Counted from the stretch's first letter, positions 1-55,245 are shown. The stretch is 64,000 nt of DNA from a virus (IMGVR_UViG_3300024344_000001), one strand, 5' to 3'. Translations and numbers: made by a program. Notes: generated from the sequence alone by a model not told the origin.

Positions 1-1354
1 CACCAACCTTGATTTCAAATAAACATTTTTGACCACTTGGTGTAATCACAACCGTATCTAGGGATAAACATTTGTTGAACGAGTATCTAGCTGACTTTTC
101 AATCCAACCGAAGATCTCATCAGCTTCTTCTTGATTAACTATCTTTGTAATTATACACCCGTTTTCGAACTTTACACGCACTTTTTTCATCAAATCGGCC
201 TTTTTTTTGCCAATTGCCTTACGAAGGTCATCTGCCTCCTGTAAGTTAAAGTCCGCTAGCTCTACTGAGATTGTCATCGCCTGCTCTTGGTATACAAGTA
301 CACCTTGAGTAGCAGCCAAGATAGGTTCTAGTGCAATATGAATGTATTCTAGTGGCTCTGTCCCGTTCTTACGGTCCACATACCACTGAGTCATTGACTT
401 ACCATCCATTATAGCCTTGGTACAATTATGGACAACGACGTTCCCAGCAATGAAATTATGATTTGGAGCAAGCATGGAGATATCATAGGTATCTTTTACC
501 CCTACACTCTCTTTTCCAGTAAAAGTTCCCCACACAAAACCCTTATATTGAGGCAATATAAGTTCTTTTCTGGCTCTCAATAGGCGGAATCTTGGAATTT
601 GACCTTCAGTATATTCCCTATGATGATTTGGACATAGGAAACACAAATTCTCTGCCGAGTTATCTACATATCTATTTCCATCAATATGATTAACATCTAG
701 ACTAGCTTTATTCCAGTCACAGAATAGACATTTCACCTCATAATTTTGATAGCATATCTCCTGAAAATATTTATTCCCACGCACGGGTTCAGTTAATCCA
801 TCTTTAACTGAATTAGATGAAGTTCGGTCGCCATTTTTAGCTAAAACGGCAATCCTATCTCCTACCTTTAGATCCTTTAATTCTATCCAACCATTTGGCG
901 TAAGTAGTTTGTGATCATCAGTACATTCTAGATTATACCAATTACCAGACATTCTTCGATTAATTGCATCCTGAAGATATCTAACAACATTAACCCGAAA
1001 ACACTCCTTTTTACCAGAGTAAATAACGTCTTCTACTGTATTTTCGTATAGTTTAGACGTACCATGAGTGGTATCCAAAGACATTATTGTATCATACTTA
1101 TCACTATCTTTGAATATATCTCTAATTGCCACTTTCTTATGCCCACGCTTGTCATATTTCTTCACGTACACTTTCGTGTCGCCAGAAACACAACCTGGGC
1201 GAATGATAGCAATCAAGTCAGATAGCTGTTCAAGATTTTCTGGTTCGGTCTTTTTTGACCAGTTTGACTGTCTATCTAACTGGAAAATACCTTTTGTACG
1301 CCCTTCAGCGAACAATTCGACCATTTCTTGTGTAAAACTGTATCTACCCATCAT
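1..1354 (-). CDS. dnaE: DNA polymerase III alpha (DnaE) C-terminal fragment, 3' end beyond window edge; carries an intein
   Basis: Minus-strand frame from ATG at 1354 reads MMGRYSFTQEMVELFAEGRTKGIFQLD...LIAIIRPG|C...|CTKAIMDG..VLVYQEQAM..LRKAIGKKK. This aligns with E. coli DnaE from about residue 615 (SFDMLQR..AVFQLES..ALFRPGP..YQEQVM..RAMGKKK). The frame stays open to coordinate 1. Confidence 0.75.
   Translation of the reverse strand, partial: MMGRYSFTQEMVELFAEGRTKGIFQLDRQSNWSKKTEPENLEQLSDLIAIIRPGCVSGDTKVYVKKYDKRGHKKVAIRDIFKDSDKYDTIMSLDTTHGTSKLYENTVEDVIYSGKKECFRVNVVRYLQDAINRRMSGNWYNLECTDDHKLLTPNGWIELKDLKVGDRIAVLAKNGDRTSSNSVKDGLTEPVRGNKYFQEICYQNYEVKCLFCDWNKASLDVNHIDGNRYVDNSAENLCFLCPNHHREYTEGQIPRFRLLRARKELILPQYKGFVWGTFTGKESVGVKDTYDISMLAPNHNFIAGNVVVHNCTKAIMDGKSMTQWYVDRKNGTEPLEYIHIALEPILAATQGVLVYQEQAMTISVELADFNLQEADDLRKAIGKKKADLMKKVRVKFENGCIITKIVNQEEADEIFGWIEKSARYSFNKCLSLDTVVITPSGQKCLFEIKVG
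425..1192 (-). mobile_element. Intein (256 aa) inserted after the RPG motif of DnaE, with an embedded HNH homing-endonuclease domain
   Basis: N-terminal block CVSGDTKVY directly after RPG. Block B is NLECTDDHKLLT (TxxH). C-terminal splice junction is NVVVHN|C. HNH motif present: CLFCDWNKASLDVNHIDGN...CFLCPNHH. Flanking exteins restore a contiguous DnaE alignment. Confidence 0.7.
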
Positions 1355-1607
1355 TTTTGTAACCACTCTCCATTATATCCATCGCACGATGGATAAAATC
1401 CCATCTTGCGTCTGTAGCATGTTCTACCATAAAATCGATTACTTCATTAACCGCTTCAACAAACTCGCCCTTTAGTGCTAATTCTTCAAGTGGTGTCAAT
1501 CTGTAACCGCTGGGAACAGTAATTTTATACTCACCAGACATGGTTAGAATCTCAAGTTCTTGTATACAGCCCTGTGGGTCTGTAGAAATCTTGTCATAAC
1601 TTGGCAA
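1344..1607 (-). CDS. 87-aa ORF between the exonuclease gene and dnaE-C; possibly a 5' extension of dnaE-C via +1 frameshift at an A5 run
   Basis: ORF ends ..ESGYKNDG* and overlaps dnaE-C ATG-ATG (1349-1354) in the +1 frame; a run of five A (tacAAAAAtgatg) sits at the junction. Confidence 0.3.
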   Translation of the reverse strand: MPSYDKISTDPQGCIQELEILTMSGEYKITVPSGYRLTPLEELALKGEFVEAVNEVIDFMVEHATDARWDFIHRAMDIMESGYKNDG

Positions 1608-2188
1608 GTGTGCTTAACGTCAACCAACGCATCATGAGCACCCTCGCCGTCAATCCCCATCATTTTCCTAATAGCGTCCATACTGATGGAGGTAACATCA
1701 TGGTCATTCTCCATCCACATATACAAGTTATCCATCATATCGATCTTGAATACCTGACTAAACAGGGCCTGATCATTTCTCTTACTGTCCCACGGACCAT
1801 ATTCTTTACAGATACGGCGGATAATGGGTATGTCATAGTTAATTATATTATATCCTGCTGGAACTGGATTGAAGAATGGTTTACCGCTTGGGTTCATCTT
1901 ATTAACAAACTGTTGGAACTTAGGCCATACATTCTTCAACTTAGGGGCAGCAGCTATTTCCTCCCTAGTCTGCCCTGTTACTTTAAGGGCGTCTGCTTCC
2001 AATGGAGCAAGGTTAGCTGCGACAGCCTTTTCATCATCAGTCTCGGCCCAAATCATAGACTGAAATTCGCCCATAGGTTTCAAAGTTCGCCCGTGTAAAC
2101 CTATAGCAGCAATCTGAGTAGGTTGGCAGGTATCTGGGTCTCTACCGCCAGTTTCAAGGTCAAAACAAACAATATGCCTGGTATGCAT
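1544..2188 (-). CDS. dnaQ: DnaQ-like DEDDh 3'-5' exonuclease (proofreading epsilon-like)
   Basis: Exo I motif MHTRHIVCFDLETGG; Exo III-like GAHDALVDV; lies between the two dnaE fragments. Confidence 0.75.
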   Translation of the reverse strand: MHTRHIVCFDLETGGRDPDTCQPTQIAAIGLHGRTLKPMGEFQSMIWAETDDEKAVAANLAPLEADALKVTGQTREEIAAAPKLKNVWPKFQQFVNKMNPSGKPFFNPVPAGYNIINYDIPIIRRICKEYGPWDSKRNDQALFSQVFKIDMMDNLYMWMENDHDVTSISMDAIRKMMGIDGEGAHDALVDVKHTCQVMTRFLQTHRAVYKNLRF

Positions 2189-2191
2189 AAT

Positions 2192-3856
2192 TTACTTTCC
2201 GTTGCTTAGCGGAGTTAGAACGCCGCCGTGTCTTTCTTGTACAAGTTCTTCCATCAACATTACCTTATCCAAGTGTGTTAATCCAAGAACGTCAAACTTT
2301 TCTTGCCCAAGATCACCAAGATCGCCCATTTCCAATGCCGCCTTAACGTTACCATCTTCGTCTGTAAGCATAGGGCATACATCTGCTAGACAGTCTCTAG
2401 AGATTACTACACCCGCCGCGTGCTTACCATGTGACTTAAAGGTTCCCTCAAGGTCAATAGCCTGCTGGAAATATGGGGCAAAAACACCTTCTAACTTACC
2501 ATCATAGTTAATATGACAGTAATCAATCAACTCTTTCTTGTTATGTAAGAGCGACCAACGAATAATGGATGGGTCATCCATAGATGAAAGCTGGTCAGAG
2601 ATCAAAGATTCATCAGGAATGAACTTGGTCATTTCATTCATTTCACCAAAACCACAAGCCTCATTGACTCTCAGAACTTCCTTAAGGGCAGATTTACCCT
2701 GTAGTCGTCCAAAAGTAATCACCTGACCTACCTTGTCATGGCCGTAGGTATCCTTGATGTAGTCAATAATTTCATCACGCTTGCTGGCTGGCACGTCCAT
2801 ATCAATATCTGGTAGGGAGATATGGTCACCTGTATTACGTCCAGCGTTGTAGAAACGCTCGAAGATTAAACCGTATTCAATAGGGTCAATGGTTGTCACC
2901 CCTAGTAAATACGAAATTAAACAGCCTGCCGCAGAGCCTCGTCCGGGTCCAGTAAGCCACCCGTTATCTCTACAAAATCTGATGATATCCCAAACGATTA
3001 AAAAGTAACCGAATAGGTCAGCGTCCTTAATAACGGTGAATTCATGTTCGAATCTTTTACCGTACAGGTCTCTACCTTCACCCTCAATCCTACTAGTACC
3101 ACCCAGTTCTCTCTTCCACCCCTCACGACATAGTTCCTTAAGGAATTCTTCCTCAGTCTCGCCGTTTGGTGTAGAGAAGTTAGGTAGAATAGGGCCGCTT
3201 AGAATGTTGTATTCTTCGCACTTATCAAAGATCTCCTGGAGAGAATTATGATTCTCTTCGTCCAGCATGTGCATCGCCGTTACTTGATCGTTATCTCTCA
3301 CATACCAGTCATCAAACTCAAAGAATTTGTGTAGACCATCAGGAACGGCGGTATTACCCTTCTTGATCTTAGGGAGAGTGGTTTTTAGACTAGTACATAG
3401 TAATATGCGATGTAGTTCAGCCTGTTCTTTCTCTACGTAGTATGAGGAACGCAGTAATTCCGTCTTGACATAGAAATCATCACCGGAGATTGGTGAGTCG
3501 GCCTCATAGTCTCCTACAGAAATAAGGTTTCCCCTAGCACAACGCTCACGTAGGACGTGGTTGTCTACCTTTCCATCAACAATCGACGATACGATCTTAA
3601 TTAGATCGAACCAACCATCCTTATTTTTGGCAAACAACTTGAATTTCTCAAATGAACAACCGATGATCGGTCTAATACCAGCTTTCTGACAGGCTTTGAA
3701 GAACTGCACGGAACCTGAAATAGAGTGATAGTCAGCAATACCACAGGCGGGGAATTCACATTTCGCACACTTTTTAGCAAGTTCGGCTGGTTTTGAGAAC
3801 CCTCTTAGAAGAGAGTAGTGAGTGAAGTTACATAGGGGAAACCACATATTAGTCAA
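2192..3856 (-). CDS. dnaE: DNA polymerase III alpha (DnaE) N-terminal fragment (PHP + palm/fingers), ends with TAA
   Basis: PHP-domain start MWFPLCNFTHYSLL; catalytic region GYFLIVWDIIRFCRDNGWLTGPGRGSAAGCLISYLLGVTTIDPIEYGLIFERFYN; ends ..KFDVLGLTHLDK..TPLSNGK, matching E. coli DnaE ~res 560-610. Confidence 0.85.
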   Translation of the reverse strand: MTNMWFPLCNFTHYSLLRGFSKPAELAKKCAKCEFPACGIADYHSISGSVQFFKACQKAGIRPIIGCSFEKFKLFAKNKDGWFDLIKIVSSIVDGKVDNHVLRERCARGNLISVGDYEADSPISGDDFYVKTELLRSSYYVEKEQAELHRILLCTSLKTTLPKIKKGNTAVPDGLHKFFEFDDWYVRDNDQVTAMHMLDEENHNSLQEIFDKCEEYNILSGPILPNFSTPNGETEEEFLKELCREGWKRELGGTSRIEGEGRDLYGKRFEHEFTVIKDADLFGYFLIVWDIIRFCRDNGWLTGPGRGSAAGCLISYLLGVTTIDPIEYGLIFERFYNAGRNTGDHISLPDIDMDVPASKRDEIIDYIKDTYGHDKVGQVITFGRLQGKSALKEVLRVNEACGFGEMNEMTKFIPDESLISDQLSSMDDPSIIRWSLLHNKKELIDYCHINYDGKLEGVFAPYFQQAIDLEGTFKSHGKHAAGVVISRDCLADVCPMLTDEDGNVKAALEMGDLGDLGQEKFDVLGLTHLDKVMLMEELVQERHGGVLTPLSNGK

Positions 3857-4037
3857 TCCAATTCAACTGAAATTCTTCTCGTAGTACCACTTCTCTTTGA
3901 GATATAGCCCATTCGCAGTTCACATAAATGGAATCATTAACGTTTACTTCGATCATATCATCCTCCACACTGTATTATACGGGATCTGGGCCGTTTGTCA
4001 ACCGATTTCCGCCCAGATTCCCAAAAAACGCCAACTA

Positions 4038-5060
4038 TTAACCTGGGGCCTCGTAGTAACCAATACTGTGACCAGGGGCCGTTAGATCCACAACGGTTTT
4101 ATCCATACCGTGTTCATCTAGATAGTCACCTACATACTGGCACATGTTAGTATTAGTGCCTTCCCAGTCATTCTTACAGTAGTGACAAATCCTCGTACAC
4201 TTCCAGTGACTTCTATCTCTTGATAGAGGTTTTGGGTTATCGTTCTTGACAATGTCCTTATATCGATCCTTCAAGATTCCAAGGAATCTATCTCGGTCTT
4301 CATCCTCGAAGAATAAGGTGAACGGGCCACCCTGGTCTGGTCTGATAAAGTAGATGGTCATAATCACATTTTTGTAATCAGGAAACATCTTGGAGATAGC
4401 GTAGTGATACAATAATAGCTGCGGATCATTCTGCAACTTATCATAGTCCTTAACTTCGCCGGTTACCCAGTCTTTTCTTTGGCCGGTCTTCCAGTCTACT
4501 ACCTCAATAGTGTCATCGTCAACCTTAGTTACAAGGTCGATAGTACCCTTGATGGCAAGCTGGCCCTCTAAATGATTACCCTGGGCGTCTACGAAGTCGT
4601 ATTTAGCCCAAGGTTCCTCAATAGCCATATCAAAGTGAGGCTCTGGGTAGAGTATATCACGCTTACGCGGATCAAAAACGCCGTGCTCCATCACGACGTT
4701 CACAAGTTTAGTGACTTCCTTGCGGTCGCCCTTAGTCCACTTATGCTTAGAATCCTTAGTGTAGGACTCAAAACAAAGATCTTCCAGGGTACGTAGGAAA
4801 TCGTCTGTGTAAAGTTCCTCTGCCTTGATTCTTATTTTACCAGTTACCTCGTCAGTACATTCGAGAGTCTTACGCTTAGGATTATCCTGCTCAAATTTCT
4901 TGAGGAAAGAGATAACTTCCATCACCTTATGGACAATGGTCCCTAACTCTGCCTTCTTCCCTGAATCTGTTCTATAGCCTAGTACGTAGGTCATGAAATA
5001 CTGCATTTCGCAGAACTTGTAATTGACCATACTAGAACTTCTGATATACGCACACTGCAT
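4038..5060 (-). CDS. PD-(D/E)XK Cas4/RecB-family exonuclease with C-terminal Cys cluster
   Basis: Motif IEVVDWKTG (RecB nuclease motif III); C-terminal HWKCTRICHYCKNDW..C (4 Cys, Fe-S like). Confidence 0.65.
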   Translation of the reverse strand: MQCAYIRSSSMVNYKFCEMQYFMTYVLGYRTDSGKKAELGTIVHKVMEVISFLKKFEQDNPKRKTLECTDEVTGKIRIKAEELYTDDFLRTLEDLCFESYTKDSKHKWTKGDRKEVTKLVNVVMEHGVFDPRKRDILYPEPHFDMAIEEPWAKYDFVDAQGNHLEGQLAIKGTIDLVTKVDDDTIEVVDWKTGQRKDWVTGEVKDYDKLQNDPQLLLYHYAISKMFPDYKNVIMTIYFIRPDQGGPFTLFFEDEDRDRFLGILKDRYKDIVKNDNPKPLSRDRSHWKCTRICHYCKNDWEGTNTNMCQYVGDYLDEHGMDKTVVDLTAPGHSIGYYEAPG

Positions 5061-5061
5061 A

Positions 5062-5304
5062 CTATTTCCAATCTGTTAATGGGTCATCTGTAAGAACGGT
5101 TATATCCGTGACTCCGTTCCCAGTATATCCCCTAAATTTGATTCCGCCGTCTACTTCTCTGATATATCTCAATGTTCCCGGCGGGTACTTGTGTCTACAT
5201 GACTCCGATATACCAATAATCACCTTTTTCACCTTGGGATGCTTCTCCAGTTGTGTTACACTTTTACGTAACTCTTTAGCGACCGAAGTATGCTTACCTC
5301 TCAT
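5062..5304 (-). CDS. hypothetical small protein
   Basis: ORF in minus-strand gene array. Confidence 0.35.
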   Translation of the reverse strand: MRGKHTSVAKELRKSVTQLEKHPKVKKVIIGISESCRHKYPPGTLRYIREVDGGIKFRGYTGNGVTDITVLTDDPLTDWK

Positions 5305-5305
5305 T

Positions 5306-6148
5306 TTACTGCTCCACTATAGGTAATTCGTCTACGATAGGAGTGAATAGTAGTTCAAGTTCCTTCTTGAGTTCCAGTAGACTACCATCCTTAAGTATCC
5401 TGGTGAAGATAGATTCATCAATATCATCAACGGAGGTTTCGCTGGCATGACCATCGGTGAATATATCACGCGGTAGTCTCAACACATTACCTGGTAGATT
5501 ACGAATGGCCTCAGCCTCATTGGGAAATCTTACGTCCGCTATGATAGCAATTTCACTGCCGTCATTAACGATACGTCTCATAGTATCTGCGATCCATACC
5601 GGCTCCCAGATCTTACGCATAACATCGGTACCAAAGAACTGCATAAACTCACGGGCAGTCATTGCTCCTGCGGGGTGAAACACTAAACCCTCTGTCGTTC
5701 TCTTGTAGTATTCACCCAACCGACCACTTACTGATCTACCCCTATTGCCGACTTCGGGTGGTACTTCTGTCACCACCCCCGGCATATTTTCCCACAACAG
5801 ATGTTCAATCTTTGTGTTCTTCTGTTCGTCTGTCCCGAATACGCACTCAGCCGGAACCCCAAACATATGAATACAGATATCCTTGAGGGTATCCGCAAAA
5901 CTATACAGCTTCACATACGGCCAGATAGTAGTCTCCGCATACTCAGAGAACTCTGGGTCACGGCGAGTAATATCAAATACGGGCCAGGAATCATCCATCT
6001 GCCCCTTATTCTGAATTAGTAGTTGACCCTTATCACTAATAGTCCAATCCTTAATGGCCCCGATCTTTTTCAGGACCATACCGTGAATTACATTAGCACA
6101 AGTTCCTTTACCGGACTGCTTCTTGCCCGCAAACCCAAACACTTTCAT
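5306..6148 (-). CDS. deoxynucleoside monophosphate kinase-like P-loop protein
   Basis: N-terminal P-loop MKVFGFAGKKQSGKGT resembling phage dNMP kinases. Confidence 0.55.
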   Translation of the reverse strand: MKVFGFAGKKQSGKGTCANVIHGMVLKKIGAIKDWTISDKGQLLIQNKGQMDDSWPVFDITRRDPEFSEYAETTIWPYVKLYSFADTLKDICIHMFGVPAECVFGTDEQKNTKIEHLLWENMPGVVTEVPPEVGNRGRSVSGRLGEYYKRTTEGLVFHPAGAMTAREFMQFFGTDVMRKIWEPVWIADTMRRIVNDGSEIAIIADVRFPNEAEAIRNLPGNVLRLPRDIFTDGHASETSVDDIDESIFTRILKDGSLLELKKELELLFTPIVDELPIVEQ

Positions 6149-7140
6149 AGTAATAATTCCCTTACTTTATCAATACTCATATCCCCGATGTCCTTTTTGT
6201 CCATCTTCGGAAATACCAATCTAAACATACGATTCAAGTCTCTCAAGATATTCTGCTTTGCCTCTCTACCGGGCTGATCATTATCAACCAGTACGGTAAG
6301 GGTAGTAGCCCCAGAGGATAGCAGCAATCCTTTTTGATAAGGTGAGATACTTTTTCCAAGGATACCTACACAGTTGTGGATACCCGCCTCATTCAAACGC
6401 CAGATATCACCCTGGCCCTCTGTGATATAGATGTTTCTCTCCACATGCTCAATAGCTTTGTGGTAGTTATACAGATACTTAGACTTACTAAAGCCATCCG
6501 AGTATATGTACTTCGGCTCCATGAACTCTTTTAGTCTACGTGCAATGAACGCTACCTTATTACCCTCTTCGTCGTGAATAGGTATGATAGCTCGCCTATG
6601 GTACTTACTACCATTCCAGCAATCCTCAACGCCGTATTCTCTAAGGGTGTCATGCTTAAAGCCGCGTTCGTCTTCAAAGTATTCTGACTTCCCAATAGTA
6701 TTAGGCCAGATAACAGGTGGAGGGTTACCTCTTTCTACCCGTTTACCGAATATCTTCACAATGTCGTGTAGGTCAGTCCGCTCGATGTGCTCGGTTTGGA
6801 TATGACCGCCGTCCAGATTATACAAACTTAAGAGGAAGCTAAGTGCTCCACTGAAGTCGCATTCTAAAACGCCGCTTACAAAGTCAAAAATACTAGTACC
6901 AAGATCAGAATGGCACTCATGACTCCAACATGCCCAACATCGCTTATCCAACGATATAGACAAGGACTTATCATTATCACTTCCATGAATAGGACAGCAC
7001 ATGAACACACTACCACTGTACTCTGTGTAGTCCAGGTTCAGTTCACTTAGTAGAAGATCGATGTTGTCAAGGACGACCGCTTCGACTTTTCTAAGATCCA
7101 GTGTGTTTTGTGTACTCATATACTTTTCTACACATATCAA
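6145..7140 (-). CDS. dnaG: DnaG-type DNA primase (zinc finger + Toprim)
   Basis: CHC2 zinc finger CCPIHGSDNDKSLSISLDKRCWACWSHEC; Toprim motifs ITEGQGD and VLVDNDQPG. Confidence 0.8.
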   Translation of the reverse strand: MICVEKYMSTQNTLDLRKVEAVVLDNIDLLLSELNLDYTEYSGSVFMCCPIHGSDNDKSLSISLDKRCWACWSHECHSDLGTSIFDFVSGVLECDFSGALSFLLSLYNLDGGHIQTEHIERTDLHDIVKIFGKRVERGNPPPVIWPNTIGKSEYFEDERGFKHDTLREYGVEDCWNGSKYHRRAIIPIHDEEGNKVAFIARRLKEFMEPKYIYSDGFSKSKYLYNYHKAIEHVERNIYITEGQGDIWRLNEAGIHNCVGILGKSISPYQKGLLLSSGATTLTVLVDNDQPGREAKQNILRDLNRMFRLVFPKMDKKDIGDMSIDKVRELLL

Positions 7141-7159
7141 GGAAGTAGCTTTGTTTGAA

Positions 7160-7318
7160 TTTGTTTTTCATAATATTCAAGTCTTTATGTACCCAATGCC
7201 ACTTTCGAGCGTTTATTTCTCCTGATTTTGGATAAAATGCCATAAAAGTCCGCAATTAGCAAGAGCGTAAGCCGCCCATACTAATCCATGAGGATAATCC
7301 TTACGTCTTACGCAATCA
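7160..7318 (-). CDS. possible small membrane peptide (~52 aa, below ORF-track cutoff)
   Basis: Minus-strand ORF MGIPAIIIATCCYLITAFDCVRRKDYPHGLVWAAYALANCGLLWHFIQNQEK read by eye in the 7141-7460 intergenic region; coordinates approximate. Confidence 0.2.
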
Positions 7319-7460
7319 AATGCGGTAATCAAATAGCAACATGTTGCAATTATTATTGCTGGAATACCCATATTAACACACCGTAGCAATTACGATAAAT
7401 AGGATTGACATTAATATATTGAGCCAACTGTTAGTTTGAAACAGAATTTCCTGACTTAAC

Positions 7461-7667
7461 CTAGACATCTCTTTCATCTGTTCTCTCTCCTGTGTATTCC
7501 CACCTGAATCCTAGGATTAGGCGTTGCATGAGTCTATGAAACCAGTTAGGGATTTTACGTGTCAAACTGGGTCTAAATACTAATCCGTCCGTAATATTAC
7601 AGGACCAACCAGAAGGTTTTGCCCACTGTACTTCGAACTTAGAGTCTTCAAAATTATGTGGAGACAT
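7461..7667 (-). CDS. hypothetical small protein
   Basis: ORF directly downstream of dnaB. Confidence 0.3.
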   Translation of the reverse strand: MSPHNFEDSKFEVQWAKPSGWSCNITDGLVFRPSLTRKIPNWFHRLMQRLILGFRWEYTGERTDERDV

Positions 7668-7668
7668 T

Positions 7669-9111
7669 TCATTCCTCTATCTCAATAGGGTCTTCCGCAC
7701 CTTGGATAGCCCCGGTTCTATTTCGTTCCTCAAGTAATTCATCCCTAGTATGCAATTCAGCTATTCTAGAGTATGCACCTTCCATGAATAGGTTGATGTA
7801 GTTACCATCTTCCATTCCTGGCCCGTGACGAGCTACAACTACTACCATCTTACGGTTACCGTTATCCGGCCCGTCTTCTGCTATTTCCTCATCGGCCTTA
7901 GTCTTGAATACGGTCCATGAAGTACATAGCCAGATCAAACGGTCAGAACCACTAATAGCCGAGGTAGACTCTGATGTAATACCATCGCGGTTCAACTGAG
8001 TAAGTGCAACACATGCAAAGTCATACTTTACGGCCATGTTATGCAGAGAAGTAATCTGGAAACCCAGGGCCTGGTACTCTTGTACGGAGGCACTAAGACC
8101 GTCACTACTTGTTAGCTTCAGGTAGTCATAGATGACCAAACAGTCATTGGTACGGCCATTTTCATCCACACCAACCGTTCTTACGATCCACCGTTTAATC
8201 ACATTTAAGATGTTCTCAATAGGCTCGCCCGACACATTTAAGTAATGAACTGGTAGTTCTGCGACTTCCTTAGAGGCGTCCCACAGATCCGCCAGCATTT
8301 CCTCATTCTCATCGAATCCACCAGTTGCTACCGTGTTAATAGGTACGTTGGATAGATTAGACAGATATCTGTTAAGCTGGTCTTCCTTACTCATTTCCGT
8401 ATCTAGTAGGAGCACAGGAATTCCCTGACGGCCTACATTGATAGCGGTATTAAGGGCGAATACGGACTTACCGGTCTTAGGGCGTGCTGAAATTAAGTCA
8501 ACACACTTACGGCGGAAACCTCCACCAATGGCAGCATCGTATCTAGGAAAGCCACTAGATATACCAATTTGATCACATTTGTTTGCAATAAGATAATCAA
8601 CGTATTCTTCAACGGCCTCCCCAATCAGTTCAGGATTCTTTGAAGTTGAATCCTCCCTTAGTAGTTCATTTACGGGGTTTTCAATCATGTTGATGATAGA
8701 GTCAATACTTTCATCGCCCGTTACATTTTCAATCTCCCTGATAAGGGTACCCATTGTCTTCTTAGCTTTTCGTAGAAACTCATACTTCTTGACCTGAACG
8801 GCCTGGTGAAATACGTTTGCCTTACGAATAGGGAACTGCATGAGTAGGTTAATGTACTCAAGTTCCTGTGGGGTATTGATAACATCTGTAAGCTTCAAGT
8901 GACCAGCAGCACCAAGGATGGACGGAACATCTACTTCCGCCCCATCCATAAGTACCTTTTCTACGCACTTGAATAGTACAGCATTATTACCATGTGTGAA
9001 GCACCCAGGGGTAATAAAGTCCGACACGTCGATATAGCATTCCATACCATACGACAGCAAGCCAGCTAGAACTGCTCGTTCTGCACCGGCGTCCACTAAT
9101 ACGCTATCCAC
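7669..9111 (-). CDS. dnaB: DnaB-like replicative helicase
   Basis: Walker A ISARPKTGKSVFALNTAIN; DnaB C-terminal RecA-like domain; N-terminal domain MDSVLVDAGAERAVLAGLL. Confidence 0.85.
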   Translation of the reverse strand: MDSVLVDAGAERAVLAGLLSYGMECYIDVSDFITPGCFTHGNNAVLFKCVEKVLMDGAEVDVPSILGAAGHLKLTDVINTPQELEYINLLMQFPIRKANVFHQAVQVKKYEFLRKAKKTMGTLIREIENVTGDESIDSIINMIENPVNELLREDSTSKNPELIGEAVEEYVDYLIANKCDQIGISSGFPRYDAAIGGGFRRKCVDLISARPKTGKSVFALNTAINVGRQGIPVLLLDTEMSKEDQLNRYLSNLSNVPINTVATGGFDENEEMLADLWDASKEVAELPVHYLNVSGEPIENILNVIKRWIVRTVGVDENGRTNDCLVIYDYLKLTSSDGLSASVQEYQALGFQITSLHNMAVKYDFACVALTQLNRDGITSESTSAISGSDRLIWLCTSWTVFKTKADEEIAEDGPDNGNRKMVVVVARHGPGMEDGNYINLFMEGAYSRIAELHTRDELLEERNRTGAIQGAEDPIEIEE

Positions 9112-32838: not shown

Positions 32839-33951
32839 TCAACCCTTAATGTTGATAATTGGTTTAACGTGATGGGTAACGTCTACCAATTCCTTCTGTT
32901 GTTCCATGACAGCAAAAATATCCTTGTAGGCGAACGGCGATTCGTCCAGGGTATCCTTATCTACCTTAGCACGAACACCCTCCATAGTCTTCTTGAAATC
33001 CTGAACATCTAATTCTCTCTTAGCGGCCTTACGTCCTAGGACGCGACCAGCACCGTGAGAAGAAGAGTGCATGGATTCTTCGTTCCCTTTACCTACTACT
33101 ATGAACGAACCGTCTCTCATGTTACCAGGAATTACGCCTTTCATCCCTTTTTCAGCATGAGTGGCACCCTTACGGTGAATCCAGCGGCCATCTTTCAATT
33201 CCGCATGATTATGATTACGGTTGATAAACGAATTCGAATCTGAAGACACACCTCCCAATCTACGGTCTAATACCGCTACTACAGCTTCAATCATAGCTGC
33301 ACGGTTAGCCAAGGCATAAGTAAGAGCATAGTTTAGGTCCACGATGTAATCCTGACCCAACTGTGAGTCTACATCAAGAGCACCATCTAGCCCCTCACCC
33401 TTAGCGATTTTCATATACTCACCCGCAATACCATGACCTAGGCCACGAGATCCTGAGTGAATAACGATCCAAATTTTATCATGCTCGTCATAGCCGATTT
33501 CAATGAAGTGGTTTCCACCACCCAATGTACCTAACTGTCTACGGGCATTACGGCGACCGTACATTTCTTCAGCAATCGCCGTATGTGGAAGTTTTTCGTC
33601 TACCCACACCTTGTCTTCCTTATGAGTATTAAAACCAACTGGAATATCACGGTAGATGTTCTGAAATAGGTAGTCGGCTCTTGCTTCAACGTCAGTTCTA
33701 TCGGCGTCTGTGCATATGCTGCTCATCCCGCAGCCTATATCGAAACCAACCCAAGCGGGGTATATTACCTCTCTTGTTGCGAATACTGAGCCAATAGGTG
33801 CATCATATCCAGTATGGGCGTCAGGCATCATAGCCCCTTGCTCAACAAATGGAGAATCCATACAATTATCAAACTGCTCCATAGCGGAGTCTTCAACAAC
33901 TTCTGCAAATATCTTTGATGGTTTCATTTCTCTCTTCTCCCTCTTATTCAC
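32839..33951 (-). CDS. rtcB: RtcB RNA 3'-phosphate/5'-OH ligase
   Basis: Motifs MPDAHTGYD, NRNHNHAE, HSSSHGAGR. Confidence 0.85.
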   Translation of the reverse strand: MNKREKREMKPSKIFAEVVEDSAMEQFDNCMDSPFVEQGAMMPDAHTGYDAPIGSVFATREVIYPAWVGFDIGCGMSSICTDADRTDVEARADYLFQNIYRDIPVGFNTHKEDKVWVDEKLPHTAIAEEMYGRRNARRQLGTLGGGNHFIEIGYDEHDKIWIVIHSGSRGLGHGIAGEYMKIAKGEGLDGALDVDSQLGQDYIVDLNYALTYALANRAAMIEAVVAVLDRRLGGVSSDSNSFINRNHNHAELKDGRWIHRKGATHAEKGMKGVIPGNMRDGSFIVVGKGNEESMHSSSHGAGRVLGRKAAKRELDVQDFKKTMEGVRAKVDKDTLDESPFAYKDIFAVMEQQKELVDVTHHVKPIINIKG

Positions 33952-34506: not shown

Positions 34507-34531
34507 TGGAGACGACGGGATTCGAACCCGT
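34507..34531 (-). pseudogene. tRNA 3'-fragment (acceptor 3' strand + T-arm) with no matching 5' half
   Basis: ggagacg + acggg-attcgaa-cccgt; no complementary 5' acceptor found within 150 nt. Confidence 0.3.
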
Positions 34532-34847
34532 GTGTTGATTAGCAATCATAATAACTTCTACGTGTGTAGGTATGTGCCACATACCAGAGGATAGTCTTCG
34601 CCAGGCGGGTCTATCATACCTTGTCCCTCATGGGCACGGCGATTAAGTCGCTACTCTCGTCTGTTATCCGATATATTCTACGATTGGGTAAAAAGGCTCG
34701 CAGAGAAGCCCGCAGCTTACGCTGCCATTAGTACAGATGTTTTTGCATCTATTGTTCGATCTATTTTTTAACTGGCCCTTAGATCAACCAGTACACGCGA
34801 TCATTACTCTCTACTATCAGTCGATTCCAAAACGTCCCCGTTATTTT

Positions 34848-35744: not shown

Positions 35745-35784
35745 TACACGTAAAAAAAACCCGCCCCAAAAGGACGGGCTAAGG

Positions 35785-35874
35785 GCAGCTAAACGAGAAT
35801 CGAACCCGCATAACCCCGTTAGGGGTCTCCTGATTCACAGTCAGGCCCAGCAAACCAATATCTGGCTTTAACTG
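35785..35874 (-). tRNA. tRNA, type-II-like; anticodon loop reads GUG
   Basis: Acceptor cagctaa/ttaactg; extra hairpin cccc-gtta-gggg; anticodon stem cctga/tcagg, loop codon CAC; D stem ccag/ctgg. Confidence 0.4.
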
Positions 35875-37446: not shown

Positions 37447-37533
37447 TCAGAGAGAAGGGAATCGAACCCTCATACAGTCTTACGACACTCCTGCTTCCAA
37501 GGCAGGCGGCATACCAATATTGCCCACTCTCTG
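37447..37533 (-). tRNA. tRNA with Pro (UGG) anticodon arm and ~18-nt extra segment between T and anticodon arms
   Basis: Acceptor cagagag/ctctctg perfect; D stem ggca/tgcc; anticodon stem cctgc/gcagg, loop codon CCA; extra acagtcttacgacact. Confidence 0.45.
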
Positions 37534-39800: not shown

Positions 39801-39873
39801 AGAAGACAATGGGACTCGAACCCATGACACACGAGGTTAGAACTCGCTGCTCTGCCAACTGAGCTATGTCTTC
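39801..39873 (-). tRNA. amber suppressor tRNA (anticodon CUA)
   Basis: Acceptor gaagaca/tgtcttc 7/7; T-arm atggg-actcgaa-cccat; D stem gctc/gagc; anticodon stem acgag/ctcgc; plus-strand loop gtTAGaa gives RNA loop UUCUAAC. Confidence 0.6.
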
Positions 39874-41655: not shown

Positions 41656-41905
41656 ATGTTGTATGTACGAAAGTGGGTAGGATTACCAGTATAAGCTATT
41701 ACGCCCCTTGCAGCAGGGTTAATATACTGACCTACATCATCCGATTAGTCAGATCGAATGGAAGAGTGACTAATTCTTCTTCTGCCCCTAAACACTTCGA
41801 TAGGTCTTACTAATTGCCTGTCTTACGCACCAAGACTAACTAACTGCTTGACACTTGTATAAAGGAACAGTGCTCTTTTCAGCCACCACTTTGTAATAAG
41901 CACCC

Positions 41906-41990
41906 CAGGGAGGATTCGAACCTCCACCCCCCGACTAAGGGGAGACTCTTAGTTAACAGCTAAGTACAATACCATTCTGTCACCGAGGTA
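41906..41990 (-). tRNA. tRNA-like, unresolved
   Basis: T-arm ggagg-attcgaa-cctcc; no clean acceptor pairing found. Confidence 0.3.
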
Positions 41991-46800: not shown

Positions 46801-46890
46801 GTAGGAGTGCAGGGAATCGAACCCTGTTCTCGGATTTATCAGATCCTAAACCGCTTATAAAACGGCTGCCGCACCATTTGGCCTCACTCC
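46801..46890 (-). tRNA. tRNA, type-II length; anticodon loop reads UAU (or Ile GAU if the first hairpin is the anticodon arm)
   Basis: Acceptor aggagtg/cactccc; T-arm caggg-aatcgaa-ccctg; hairpin ggat-ttatcag-atcc; second stem accgc/acggc with loop ttataaa. Confidence 0.4.
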
Positions 46891-46904
46891 CGTCTCATGT
46901 ATTG

Positions 46905-53784: not shown

Positions 53785-55245
53785 TTAGTGCGTTCTTGAG
53801 AAACGAGAAGGATCAGCCAGTCCAGTGTCCAGTCTATCCGCATGGGTTACATACTCCCCACGGTCATCCTTACAGACTACAACGCCCCCATTATTAAGCA
53901 AACGACTCCCCTTTGCTTCATTACATGATTTGCATAACATTTGCAAATTATTGTACTCGGTACTACCGCCCAAACTATGAGGATGAATATGATCTCCCGC
54001 CATTTCATGGAAATCAAACGTTTGATTGCAAGATGGACAGATTTTATCTTGTTCGTGATACCTCATCTGCTTATCGTATTCAGAAAAGTATCTATGAGGA
54101 TCTTTTACTTCAAGAGAGACAGAACCACTAGCGTTAGGATGTGAAGTAATGAAGTCAAACAATATGGAATGTCTAATTCTTCTAAAGTTCTGACCATTAG
54201 CCGCATGGTGAGCATGACCGCTATAACGATAGAACTCATCTACAAATCCATGCTCTGTGATTTTATCCATCTGAGGCAGACTTTGAGTAAAGTAGACTAG
54301 GGCTTCAGAAAACTCTGTTGTATGAATTTCATAGCCTCTCTCATATAGATCCGCAATTAGACATAATATGCTTAAAAGGGCGTTCTTTTTCTTGAAATGT
54401 AAAGACCTAAGACCGCCACAGAGGGAGGCCACTTCTCTAAGAGTTTGAAAAATTCTATCAACCTTTTTGGCAATCTCATACCATTTAATTGTGGTGTCAT
54501 TAGCGTAGTTTTGGAAAAATGGCTCTAATTCATAATTGTTTGGATGATCGTGCTTAATCATAAAACTAATTAAGCAACCCAAAATCTTACCATCATCCTG
54601 TTGTCTAATTCCCTTTTTACCGACTGTAGACTCCGAGAAGATATCTGCATACTTACCATCTAAGGTAGTAAACGGCATAATTACTTCCTGCACCAAAGGT
54701 GATCTTCTAAATTGAGATCTTAGTAGTTCCTGTGGATTTACTTTGCAGCTAAGATTCAAGGACTGAAACAAATAGTCTTTTAGTTCGTCAATATCATCTT
54801 CACTTAAACCTGCTGTTTCATAAATAACAGTGCATAGTTCATAACGTCTAAACACATTTTTCTCGCTAGATGTGAGATCTTCCCATTTTTTACCATCAAG
54901 ATGACTATCAAACAAATACGGTATAGCCGCTTTGTTTTGCTTCAATCTAAGTTCATTATTTATGAACTTTTTTAGAGTCTCAGATCTTTGCTGACCATCA
55001 ATAGACTCATACCATACTTTTACTTCTACTCCATTAGCATCTTCTTCTGATCTTTCAAGCATATAGATTTTAGGAATATCTACTCCTAGATAGACAGAGT
55101 TTATGAAACTAACCTCATAGGCATATGACCACACAAAATCCCTTTGGTGTTTACCCCCTAACTGGATCTCTCCCTCATTTATTTGCCTAACAATATCACT
55201 AACAGACACAACCTTTGTCTTAGAATTCCATCTTTTTGTATTCAT
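53785..55245 (-). CDS. DUF262 (ParB/GmrS-like) + C-terminal HNH nuclease fusion (GmrSD/BrxU-type architecture)
   Basis: DUF262 motifs LGGKHQRDFVWSYAYEVSFINSVYLGVDIPKIYM and IDGQQRSETL; C-terminal HNH CPSCNQTFDFHEMAGDHIHPHSLGGSTEYNNLQMLCKSCN. Confidence 0.7.
   Translation of the reverse strand: MNTKRWNSKTKVVSVSDIVRQINEGEIQLGGKHQRDFVWSYAYEVSFINSVYLGVDIPKIYMLERSEEDANGVEVKVWYESIDGQQRSETLKKFINNELRLKQNKAAIPYLFDSHLDGKKWEDLTSSEKNVFRRYELCTVIYETAGLSEDDIDELKDYLFQSLNLSCKVNPQELLRSQFRRSPLVQEVIMPFTTLDGKYADIFSESTVGKKGIRQQDDGKILGCLISFMIKHDHPNNYELEPFFQNYANDTTIKWYEIAKKVDRIFQTLREVASLCGGLRSLHFKKKNALLSILCLIADLYERGYEIHTTEFSEALVYFTQSLPQMDKITEHGFVDEFYRYSGHAHHAANGQNFRRIRHSILFDFITSHPNASGSVSLEVKDPHRYFSEYDKQMRYHEQDKICPSCNQTFDFHEMAGDHIHPHSLGGSTEYNNLQMLCKSCNEAKGSRLLNNGGVVVCKDDRGEYVTHADRLDTGLADPSRFSRTH

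Follow-up and report, generated by a model that had tools for sequence, protein, structure and literature searches.

The dnaE locus at positions 1-3856 of IMGVR_UViG_3300024344_000001, a viral stretch of 64,000 nt that is referred to as the window throughout, encodes a C-family polymerase III alpha subunit in separate open reading frames (ORFs), with an intact gene for a DEDDh exonuclease between the first of them and the next. An initial annotation, made from the sequence alone, had pointed to this arrangement, and both the ORFs and their Pfam matches bear it out. We conclude that the split, with the exonuclease nested in it, is an old derived trait that selection has maintained in a large uncultured, mostly marine phage lineage. 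We consider it probable that the dnaE ORFs are separately translated pieces of one C-family polymerase, that the exonuclease serves as its proofreader and that the inteins within the downstream pieces are spliced out.

According to this explanation, the locus would be the replication module of a marine phage that is uncultured and rich in tRNAs, and it would be built up in three layers. The first, clade-wide and ancient, would be an intein-less break at the start of the fingers domain with the DEDDh exonuclease gene nested within it; the N-terminal piece (DnaE-N) and the downstream part (DnaE-C) would reassemble non-covalently, and the exonuclease would proofread in trans, as epsilon does for Escherichia coli alpha, the PHP domain of the polymerase having been truncated later in the window's subclade. 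The second layer, of sporadic occurrence, would be an HNH intein at RPG|C that leaves by cis protein splicing. The third, present in the window's lineage only, would be a split intein at YSFNK|SH with a Vsr-like endonuclease gene between its halves, and its trans-splicing would restore the FNKSH motif. The predicted mature products are DnaE-N of 551 amino acids (aa), the exonuclease of 214 aa and a spliced DnaE-C of 521 aa, with spliced junctions that would read IIRPG-CTKAIMDGK and YSFNK-SHSICYAANAY (YSFNK-SHSICYAANAYDTAYYK). The components of the locus that lie within the window are as follows.

2192-3847, minus strand: DnaE-N (dnaE piece 1), 551 aa, with ATG at 3847 and TAA at 2192-2194; Pfam PHP and DNA_pol3_alpha.
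1544-2188, minus strand: stand-alone DEDDh 3'-5' exonuclease, 214 aa; Pfam RNase_T, with ExoI FDLET, ExoII NYD and ExoIII HDALVD.
1344-1541, minus strand: 65-aa ORF of unknown function, stop TAG, gene calls in four assemblies.
1193-1354, minus strand: dnaE piece 2, extein 1, 54 aa (MMGRYSF...IAIIRPG), with ATG at 1354; start of the fingers domain.
425-1192, minus strand: putative contiguous HNH intein, 256 aa, at RPG|C; Pfam Intein_splicing and NCBIfam intein_Nterm.
71-424, minus strand: dnaE piece 2, extein 2, 118 aa (CTKAIMDG...ARYSFNK); fingers with VYQEQ and LRKAIGKKK.
1-70, minus strand: first 23 codons of the N half of a putative split intein (CLSLDTVVITPSGQ...), the remainder being cut off by the window edge.

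Every gene within positions 1-9000 of the window lies on the minus strand. The DnaE-N ORF reaches a TTG at 3856 in the ORF listing, gene callers use the ATG at 3847, and the Pfam matches within the protein span residues 12-93 only for PHP and residues 238-525 for DNA_pol3_alpha. The gap between DnaE-N and the next dnaE piece measures 837 bp (1355-2191), in agreement with the separation of about 840 bp noticed initially. The DnaE-N stop and the exonuclease start are 3 nt apart (TAA ATT ATG) and in a common frame; the exonuclease and DnaE-C are in different frames, and between them lies the 65-aa ORF, which overlaps the following dnaE ORF by 11 nt. This small ORF had been given as 87 aa long, a length that depends on a TTG start overlapping the exonuclease gene, but the callers in four assemblies use the ATG at 1541. 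It has no Pfam or NCBIfam match, and an exhaustive HMMER search of 1.8 billion representatives returned 8 homologues, weak or short, of unknown function. The frame that opens at the ATG at 1354 runs off position 1 and contains two Pfam DNA_pol3_finger matches with an Intein_splicing match between them.

While C-family replicases are normally single chains of ~1100 aa, the hallmarks of a C-family alpha subunit (PHP, palm Asp triad, thumb, fingers motifs and OB-fold) are spread over three ORFs here. The Pfam models PHP, DNA_pol3_alpha and DNA_pol3_finger match the fragments, as do the NCBIfam alpha models. When DnaE-N and the spliced downstream part were aligned to solved Pol III alpha chains by phmmer, residues 185-543 of the 554 in DnaE-N aligned to E. 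coli alpha 239-576, and the downstream part matched E. coli alpha 598-841 with its residues 13-258. The alignments to Taq alpha end and resume at 640 and 656, which places the break at about Taq 645-650, and at E. coli residue ~586, in a surface loop that is variable and lies where the fingers begin, just past the palm. Only the last 11 residues of DnaE-N and the first 12 of the next piece remain unaligned, and no alpha residues are lost or duplicated at the break. The continuity of the alignment proposed in the initial annotation thus holds for both E. coli and Taq alpha, but the break does not fall between residues 610 and 615, from which it is 25-30 residues away; likewise, the ORFs are separate as described, but dnaE is in three host pieces rather than two fragments, and its C part carries two inteins.

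The distribution of motifs across the break is unequal. Palm, thumb and the truncated remnant of a PHP domain make up DnaE-N, which holds the entire catalytic Asp triad (DIDMD, corresponding to E. coli D401/D403, and KFDVLG, corresponding to D555). The fingers motifs RPG, YQEQ, LRKAIGKKK and FNKSH are all on the downstream pieces, where an OB-fold match is weak. With the catalytic Asp residues on DnaE-N, and the fingers, which bind dNTP and template, together with the OB-fold on the C part, the active site would be composite and neither part should be able to polymerise alone; a functional enzyme would therefore require non-covalent reassembly. Annotation pipelines label each piece as "DNA polymerase III subunit alpha" and thereby overlook that it is half an enzyme.

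The same architecture recurs throughout a clade of related phages. A scan of IMG/VR with DnaE-N yielded 80 loci at 35-61% identity, and in every locus with enough downstream sequence, tblastn recovered the order DnaE-N, exonuclease, DnaE-C in varying relative frames, with the exonuclease as the only gene found within the break at every locus. In ~60 loci, DnaE-N ends in a stop codon (TAA, TAG or TGA, depending on the locus) within ~20 codons of one alignment position. The genes for DnaE-N and the exonuclease overlap by 8 nt in the nearest subclade and are 3 nt apart in the window; in most of the clade, 160-235 bp with a conserved ~75-aa ORF separate them, and in a few loci up to 3.1 kb with cargo genes. 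Outside the window's lineage, the C part is a single unbroken ORF of 510-526 aa, compared to 521 aa for the predicted spliced product of the window. Moreover, a word-indexed search over 5.8 billion proteins identified 6812 DnaE-N homologues at E<1e-20, the best 120 of which are all 537-568 aa long, contain PHP and DNA_pol3_alpha only and in many cases come from Tara or other marine samples.

Both polymerase and exonuclease are under strong purifying selection: in 8 locus pairs, the Nei-Gojobori dN/dS ratios of DnaE-N, of the exonuclease and of each C segment fall within 0.006-0.076, and percent identities of DnaE-N and of the exonuclease are correlated over 46 loci (r=0.89). This co-divergence under purifying selection indicates that the exonuclease is a resident gene of the locus and not mobile cargo, contrary to the earlier description of it as inserted. 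In three inspected outgroups (Moorella phage MTATph1, gut phage MT835501 and Pseudomonas phage Y1), the polymerase is unsplit and the exonuclease is not found there; that of MTATph1 is annotated as one 1070-aa CDS. The closest deposited phage genomes share at most 33% identity with DnaE-N (tblastn), and a megablast of window positions 1-3900 against INPHARED gave no match, so that a cultured representative of the split clade was not found there. Among 185,579 species genomes in GTDB, the sole match was on CAXDOW010000054.1 (L088), a 12.7-kb contig binned with a metagenome-assembled genome of an uncultured member of the Flavobacteriales; this contig ends in an incomplete DnaE-N (residues 4-154, 41% identity). 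This may be a weak hint at a host or a bin contamination and is too weak for a host assignment.

Several features vary among the related loci, which are given here by L numbers. The ORF between DnaE-N and the exonuclease, ~72-84 aa long (...YKSVIFSGC.IE...CNL...YQVWSDKH...DDAV.KFIELK), occurs in most of the split clade (L009:9596-9829, L031:9566-9783, L051, L057, L079 and L026, for example) and is absent from the window's subclade, and the 65-aa ORF of the window shows no resemblance to it. Its size and position could suit a theta-like small core subunit, for which no homology to theta was found. In the deep relatives L067, L073 and L078, DnaE-C has an N-terminal extension of ~25-45 aa with F.CGC.F ... 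FNPDI..IPLDC, which the window does not have and which could contribute to reassembly by docking or by binding metal. Additional genes were found at the junctions of L004:7137-7603, L077:9638-10314, L014:3899-4296, L007:10326-10693, L067:6287-7133 and L073:9923-13030. They encode HNH and endonuclease VII-like nucleases, a family-4 uracil-DNA glycosylase, S-adenosylmethionine methyltransferase-like and formyltransferase-like proteins and glycosyltransferases, and further inserts comprise a glutamate dehydrogenase gene and a GMP reductase/IMPDH-like gene. The HNH and endonuclease VII-like ORFs at the DnaE-N/exonuclease or exonuclease/DnaE-C junctions mark these as insertion hot spots.

With regard to the exonuclease itself, D10, E12, D119, H185 and D190 of ExoI-III are invariant in an alignment of 18 sequences of 36-64% identity, which settles favorably the initial question of whether the catalytic residues are in place. 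The ExoI D-x-E, the ExoII D and the ExoIII H-x4-D are combined with an RNase H-like fold, and an AlphaFold2 model (pLDDT 89.6) shows a generic DEDDh fold. By these sequence features, the protein is a bona fide DEDDh enzyme. Its description as "DnaQ-like" is correct at the superfamily level but not beyond, as epsilon resembles the protein no more closely than do ExoI, RNase T or the PolC exonuclease domain: the model matches ExoI, RNase T, DinG-exo, PolC-exo and DnaQ about equally (E ~1e-9 to 1e-10; 16-22% identity), and NCBIfam epsilon models score 16-22 bits against cut-offs of 220-245, no better than generic exonuclease models. Orthology to epsilon thus lacks specific support, and since the enzyme is generic, a polymerase-associated role rests on synteny and co-divergence. 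Considering its invariant position, the coupling of the ORFs and the co-divergence, the exonuclease most likely acts as a trans-acting proofreading subunit.

All 109 exonuclease homologues examined are stand-alone proteins of about 210-290 aa. No fusion of DnaE-N with the exonuclease or of the exonuclease with DnaE-C was found among these and the best 120 DnaE-N homologues, which leaves a descent from a PolC-like in-frame exonuclease domain unsupported. The window exonuclease, like P0179, ends in ...KNLRF, and a C-terminal tail of ~10 residues (K.DKAFADG.LY.) present in most homologues is missing; the 65-aa ORF of the window lies directly 3' of this tail-less gene. A lead to Bacteroides phages was rejected: tblastn gave only three phage matches to the exonuclease, at 23% identity, and the neighbour there is a terminase gene and not DnaE.

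The PHP domain is the proofreader in many DnaE1 enzymes, and epsilon is the trans-acting proofreader for E. coli alpha. In the window, the ligands of a functional PHP metal site (HxH, D, H, E, H, C/H, DxH) are not preserved: ~100 residues are deleted, and PLCNFTH, SLLRG and GCSFE stand at the positions of ligand motifs. This loss of ~100 residues and most ligands is common to the window's wider subclade (L002, L009, L020 and L057). In contrast, L067 and L078, which belong to the deep part of the split clade, retain the PHP domain at full size, including its HxH, DH, E and DxH ligands, as in unsplit phages. Since deep split members keep the PHP ligands, PHP decay came after the split and the acquisition of the exonuclease. 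It parallels what Barros and colleagues in 2013 and Rock and colleagues in 2015 reportedly described for E. coli-type alpha and epsilon.

The downstream pieces carry two intein-like elements. The one at RPG|C has Cys1 (CVSGDT...), a block B TDDH, the HNH motif DVNHIDGN...CPNHH and a C-terminal VVVHN followed by Cys+1; together with its family matches and the intein-free alleles, these motifs mark it as a predicted contiguous intein. An HNH intein at this site was found elsewhere in two loci only (L039 and L078) and is missing from most relatives. Intein-free relatives run straight through RPG-C/T/S and FNK-S; the +1 residue at RPG is C in 26, T in 15 and S in 4 of them, and P in the unsplit outgroups. 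The second intein-like sequence (CLSLDTVV...) starts after ARYSFNK at window position 70 and runs off the window, which holds only 23 codons of its N half (IntN).

The region beyond the window edge was accessible through an exact-match look-up of the exonuclease protein, which retrieved the locus from Logan SRR5211068, JGI 3300011013, ENA ERZ27249630 and ENA ERZ27251151; the window subsequences compared are identical to one of these four assemblies, and three of the four reach past the edge. The ORF of piece 2 stops 73 codons past the edge, giving an IntN of 95 aa. It is followed by a 295-aa ORF with weak matches to Vsr (E=1e-3) and the I-Bth0305I catalytic domain (E=6e-3), and then by piece 3 of dnaE, a 387-aa ORF that opens with 38 aa of the predicted C half of the intein (IntC, MDIAKIISIKK...NGLVTSN) and continues with SHSICYAANAY... 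into the remaining DnaE. An SSB gene comes directly after this last dnaE piece. For the rejoined split intein, the best solved match is gp41-1 (E=1e-14), with Npu DnaE at ~1e-10, and the NCBIfam models for cyanobacterial split DnaE-N and -C match the phage pieces through the intein parts. With an IntN of 95 aa, a Vsr-like ORF of 295 aa and an IntC of 38 aa ending in SN|S, the predicted arrangement is of the "fractured gene" type of Dassa et al. 2009 (PMC2677866), which is characterised by an IntN of 88-105 aa and a free-standing GIY-YIG or Vsr-like endonuclease ORF between the intein halves. Among the related loci compared, the split intein, the Vsr-like endonuclease and the 65-aa ORF are confined to the window's own lineage. 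About 4.4 kb beyond the window start and on the dnaE strand, a 922-aa glycosyltransferase-like ORF (L083:9651-12419) has Hint and LAGLIDADG matches and is probably a third intein in the neighbourhood.

Some observations weigh against the interpretation of the locus as a split polymerase with its own proofreader. The association of DnaE-N with DnaE-C, the binding of the exonuclease and the splicing of either intein are read from genes and not from proteins. The absence of the C-terminal tail from the window exonuclease would be puzzling if this tail were a docking element, and the enzyme is generic, with ExoI and RNase T matching it as well as PolC-exo and DnaQ do. Furthermore, split members with an intact-looking PHP domain at the base of the clade imply that the loss of an active PHP was not the reason for acquiring the exonuclease. 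It could instead be an independent nuclease for recombination, repair or host-DNA degradation that happens to reside in the break, with the polymerase proofreading otherwise or not at all. Its lack of particular proximity to epsilon over ExoI, RNase T or DinG-exo in sequence and fold would fit this, as would the apparently competent PHP site of the deep relatives and the fact that some relatives carry other junction cargo (uracil-DNA glycosylase, methyltransferases, glycosyltransferases and HNH). We nevertheless regard an independent nuclease as unlikely, since the exonuclease is the sole gene found in the break at every locus, its divergence follows that of DnaE-N (r=0.89) and its ORF is coupled to those of the polymerase through start and stop codons; a transfer of proofreading to this enzyme would also predict the PHP decay of the subclade. 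Considerably less probable still is that the halves no longer cooperate, having taken up one or more separate functions or persisting as a decaying remnant in a phage replicated by the host polymerase. Such a view draws on the indirect nature of the case for assembly and on the decay of the PHP domain, but has to be reconciled with dN/dS ratios of 0.01-0.08 in all pieces, with an Asp triad and fingers motifs that are conserved on different pieces, with an order and adjacency held down to 35% identity and with the persistence in the C part of selfish inteins, which are tolerated only where the gene product is needed.

A joining of the pieces at the level of RNA or translation, through an intron that contains the exonuclease ORF, stop codon readthrough, frameshifting or ribosomal bypass, appears very improbable. 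DnaE-N and the exonuclease do share one frame in the window, with TAA ATT between them, and the phage has a suppressor-type tRNA with a CTA anticodon; however, the stop codon is TAA, and a CTA anticodon would read TAG. Moreover, relatives differ in both frame and stop codon, with the genes overlapping by 8 nt or lying 160-3100 bp apart, and in the window the frames of the exonuclease and DnaE-C differ, with the 65-aa ORF intervening. The "intron-like element" initially considered is not borne out by an Rfam scan covering 7 kb (L081:8000-15000), in which no family matched at E<=1, and a 5' intron structure could not fit into the 3 nt that separate the DnaE-N stop from the exonuclease start; in close relatives, the two genes overlap by 8 nt. 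A split intein as the cause of the break at 1355-2191 was likewise rejected, as the alpha alignment extends to within 11-13 residues of both ends, which is too little for intein halves of about 100 and 35 residues, and no Hint match was found there. Although the source is metagenomic, there is hardly any probability that the split is an artefact of assembly or sequencing, be it a chimeric contig or a frameshift in an intact dnaE: identical loci occur in four independent assemblies (Logan, JGI and two from ENA), ~60 diverged loci share the architecture, and thousands of DnaE-N-only proteins of ~540 aa are known. Of the possibilities raised initially, a two-piece polymerase assembled in trans therefore fits best, given colinear conserved ORFs and neither an intron nor an intein at the break.

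A more far-reaching version of the split-polymerase explanation, in which alphaN, exonuclease and alphaC form an adaptive, obligate core of three polypeptides rather than a tolerated scar, fixed in an abundant marine lineage in which PHP decay followed the gain of the DEDDh enzyme, is put forward only tentatively. If true, it would represent an independent replay, within a virus, of the switch from PHP to epsilon as proofreader in proteobacterial Pol III. The gene order of dnaE and exonuclease may serve an ordered co-translational assembly, and the ~75-aa ORF between DnaE-N and the exonuclease could provide a fourth, theta-like subunit. If the assembly of the pieces were confirmed, the break would offer a natural split site for the engineering of DnaE-type polymerases, the exonuclease would constitute a second, independent case of proofreading moving from PHP to a DEDDh partner, and the split dnaE would be a marker of an abundant uncultured marine phage group. 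Independently of this, the gp41-1-like split intein with its Ser+1 junction is a potential tool for protein ligation.

Upstream of DnaE-N, three further features were noted.

3849-3956, minus strand: 35-aa ORF between the Cas4-like gene and DnaE-N, called in several assemblies.
3974-4001, minus strand: promoter-like site TTGACA-16-TATAAT upstream of DnaE-N, with a 12/12 match to the sigma-70 consensus; candidate operon promoter.
4038-5060, minus strand: gene for a Cas4-like PD-(D/E)XK nuclease upstream of DnaE-N.

A Cas4-like nuclease gene is located directly upstream of the polymerase in both the window and Moorella phage MTATph1. Terminator-like sites between the dnaE pieces were not more frequent than in shuffled sequence, and the consensus promoter match together with this absence of terminators suggests that the pieces are co-transcribed. 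Such a host-type consensus promoter ahead of replication genes would point to their being transcribed early, by the host RNA polymerase in unmodified form.

Elsewhere in the window, positions 28632-53193 on the minus strand contain a dense array of 29 tRNA genes and a tmRNA gene (34507-34839, tag AKTSVLMAA). The suppressor-type tRNA with the anticodon CTA is located at 39801-39873 and labelled 'Pyl' by ARAGORN, and several of the tRNAs, with 87-92 nt, exceed the usual length (His 35783-35874, Asn 41900-41989, Ile-TAT 46801-46891 and Pro 37447-37533). A gene for an RtcB tRNA-splicing ligase (32839-33951) adjoins the array. Furthermore, a 486-aa ORF at 53785-55245 (minus strand) fuses an unknown N-terminal domain (phrog_2598 / phrog_1583) to a C-terminal HNH nuclease domain and may be another free-standing homing endonuclease.

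Split polymerase genes are already known, and the PolB of Methanothermobacter is an example of a polymerase split without an intein. The intein-less split of a full-length DnaE with a nested, conserved exonuclease is a new variant; no account of a full-length DnaE that is divided without an intein where the fingers begin, around a conserved DEDDh gene, was found in the open-access literature, which is an absence of evidence only. A survey of DnaE in bacterial genomes takes fragmented genes as errors or intein cases, and a paper on Mic1 was discarded as a precedent because it concerns a PolA intron and terminase inteins. In the T4-like Aeromonas phages 25 and 44RR, the gp43 fragments 43A and 43B co-purify and are active, and NrdA of phage Aeh1 is also split (PMC2988022). 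Here, as in the phage dnaE, an essential replication enzyme is encoded by two colinear intein-less ORFs; the break in gp43 and NrdA contains an untranslated spacer or an inserted gene, and non-covalent reassembly has been shown for these proteins and is inferred for the phage dnaE. Of the hallmarks of such split genes, colinearity with the unsplit homologue, the lack of a splicing element and purifying selection on both parts are seen in the phage dnaE, whose fragments would be predicted to co-purify as an active enzyme. In contrast to gp43, which belongs to family B and is split in few isolates, the phage dnaE belongs to family C, is broken at the boundary of palm and fingers, holds a conserved DEDDh exonuclease in the break instead of a homing endonuclease or spacer, and its split is fixed across a large metagenomic clade. 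In this clade, a C-family replicase seems to run as two non-covalently joined halves, an arrangement that is natural and strongly conserved.

Among Pol III enzymes of phages, a split minimal alpha encoded by distant genes has been described in group 2.2 (T4-like) jumbo phages by Iyer et al. 2021 (PMC7824862), with an N-terminal nucleotidyltransferase part, a C-terminal DNA-binding part and a proposed reconstitution, much as in the phage dnaE. That version is a minimal core without PHP, OB and other domains, and it occurs alongside a family-B replicase, whereas the DnaE described here is full length, its genes are neighbours that flank the exonuclease, and the window showed no other polymerase. 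PF07733 has also been reported to mark one cluster of marine jumbo phages by Weinheimer and Aylward 2022 (PMC9123017).

The second break of the gene, which lies mostly outside the window, has its closest precedent in the three fractured DnaE loci that Dassa et al. 2009 found in GOS ocean metagenomes, one of them with an extra in-frame intein (PMC2677866). These also consist of an ORF ending in IntN, a Vsr-like/EDxHD endonuclease ORF and a host ORF starting with IntC, and their DnaE-1 resembles the phage dnaE in having a second, in-frame intein upstream. However, this arrangement covers the second break only, and the break at 1355-2191 is without intein halves. Within this one genome, a single essential gene therefore combines three modes of interruption and repair, namely fission, a predicted cis-splicing intein and a putative split intein with a free-standing endonuclease.

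In the cyanobacterial split DnaE (Ssp/Npu), as in the phage, DnaE is encoded in two genes and the FNKSH region is rebuilt by a split intein, but dnaE-n and dnaE-c are widely separated without an intervening endonuclease gene, and cyanobacteria are not known to have an intein-less break or a nested exonuclease. The insertion point of the cyanobacterial intein lies four residues upstream of that of the phage (Y|CFNKSH). Finally, the E. coli Pol III core (alpha, epsilon and theta) likewise unites a C-family polymerase that has a degenerate PHP metal site with a DEDDh proofreader. Unlike in the phage, alpha is a single chain in both E. coli and PolC, the epsilon gene of E. coli is unlinked, and the exonuclease of PolC is an in-frame domain inside PHP.

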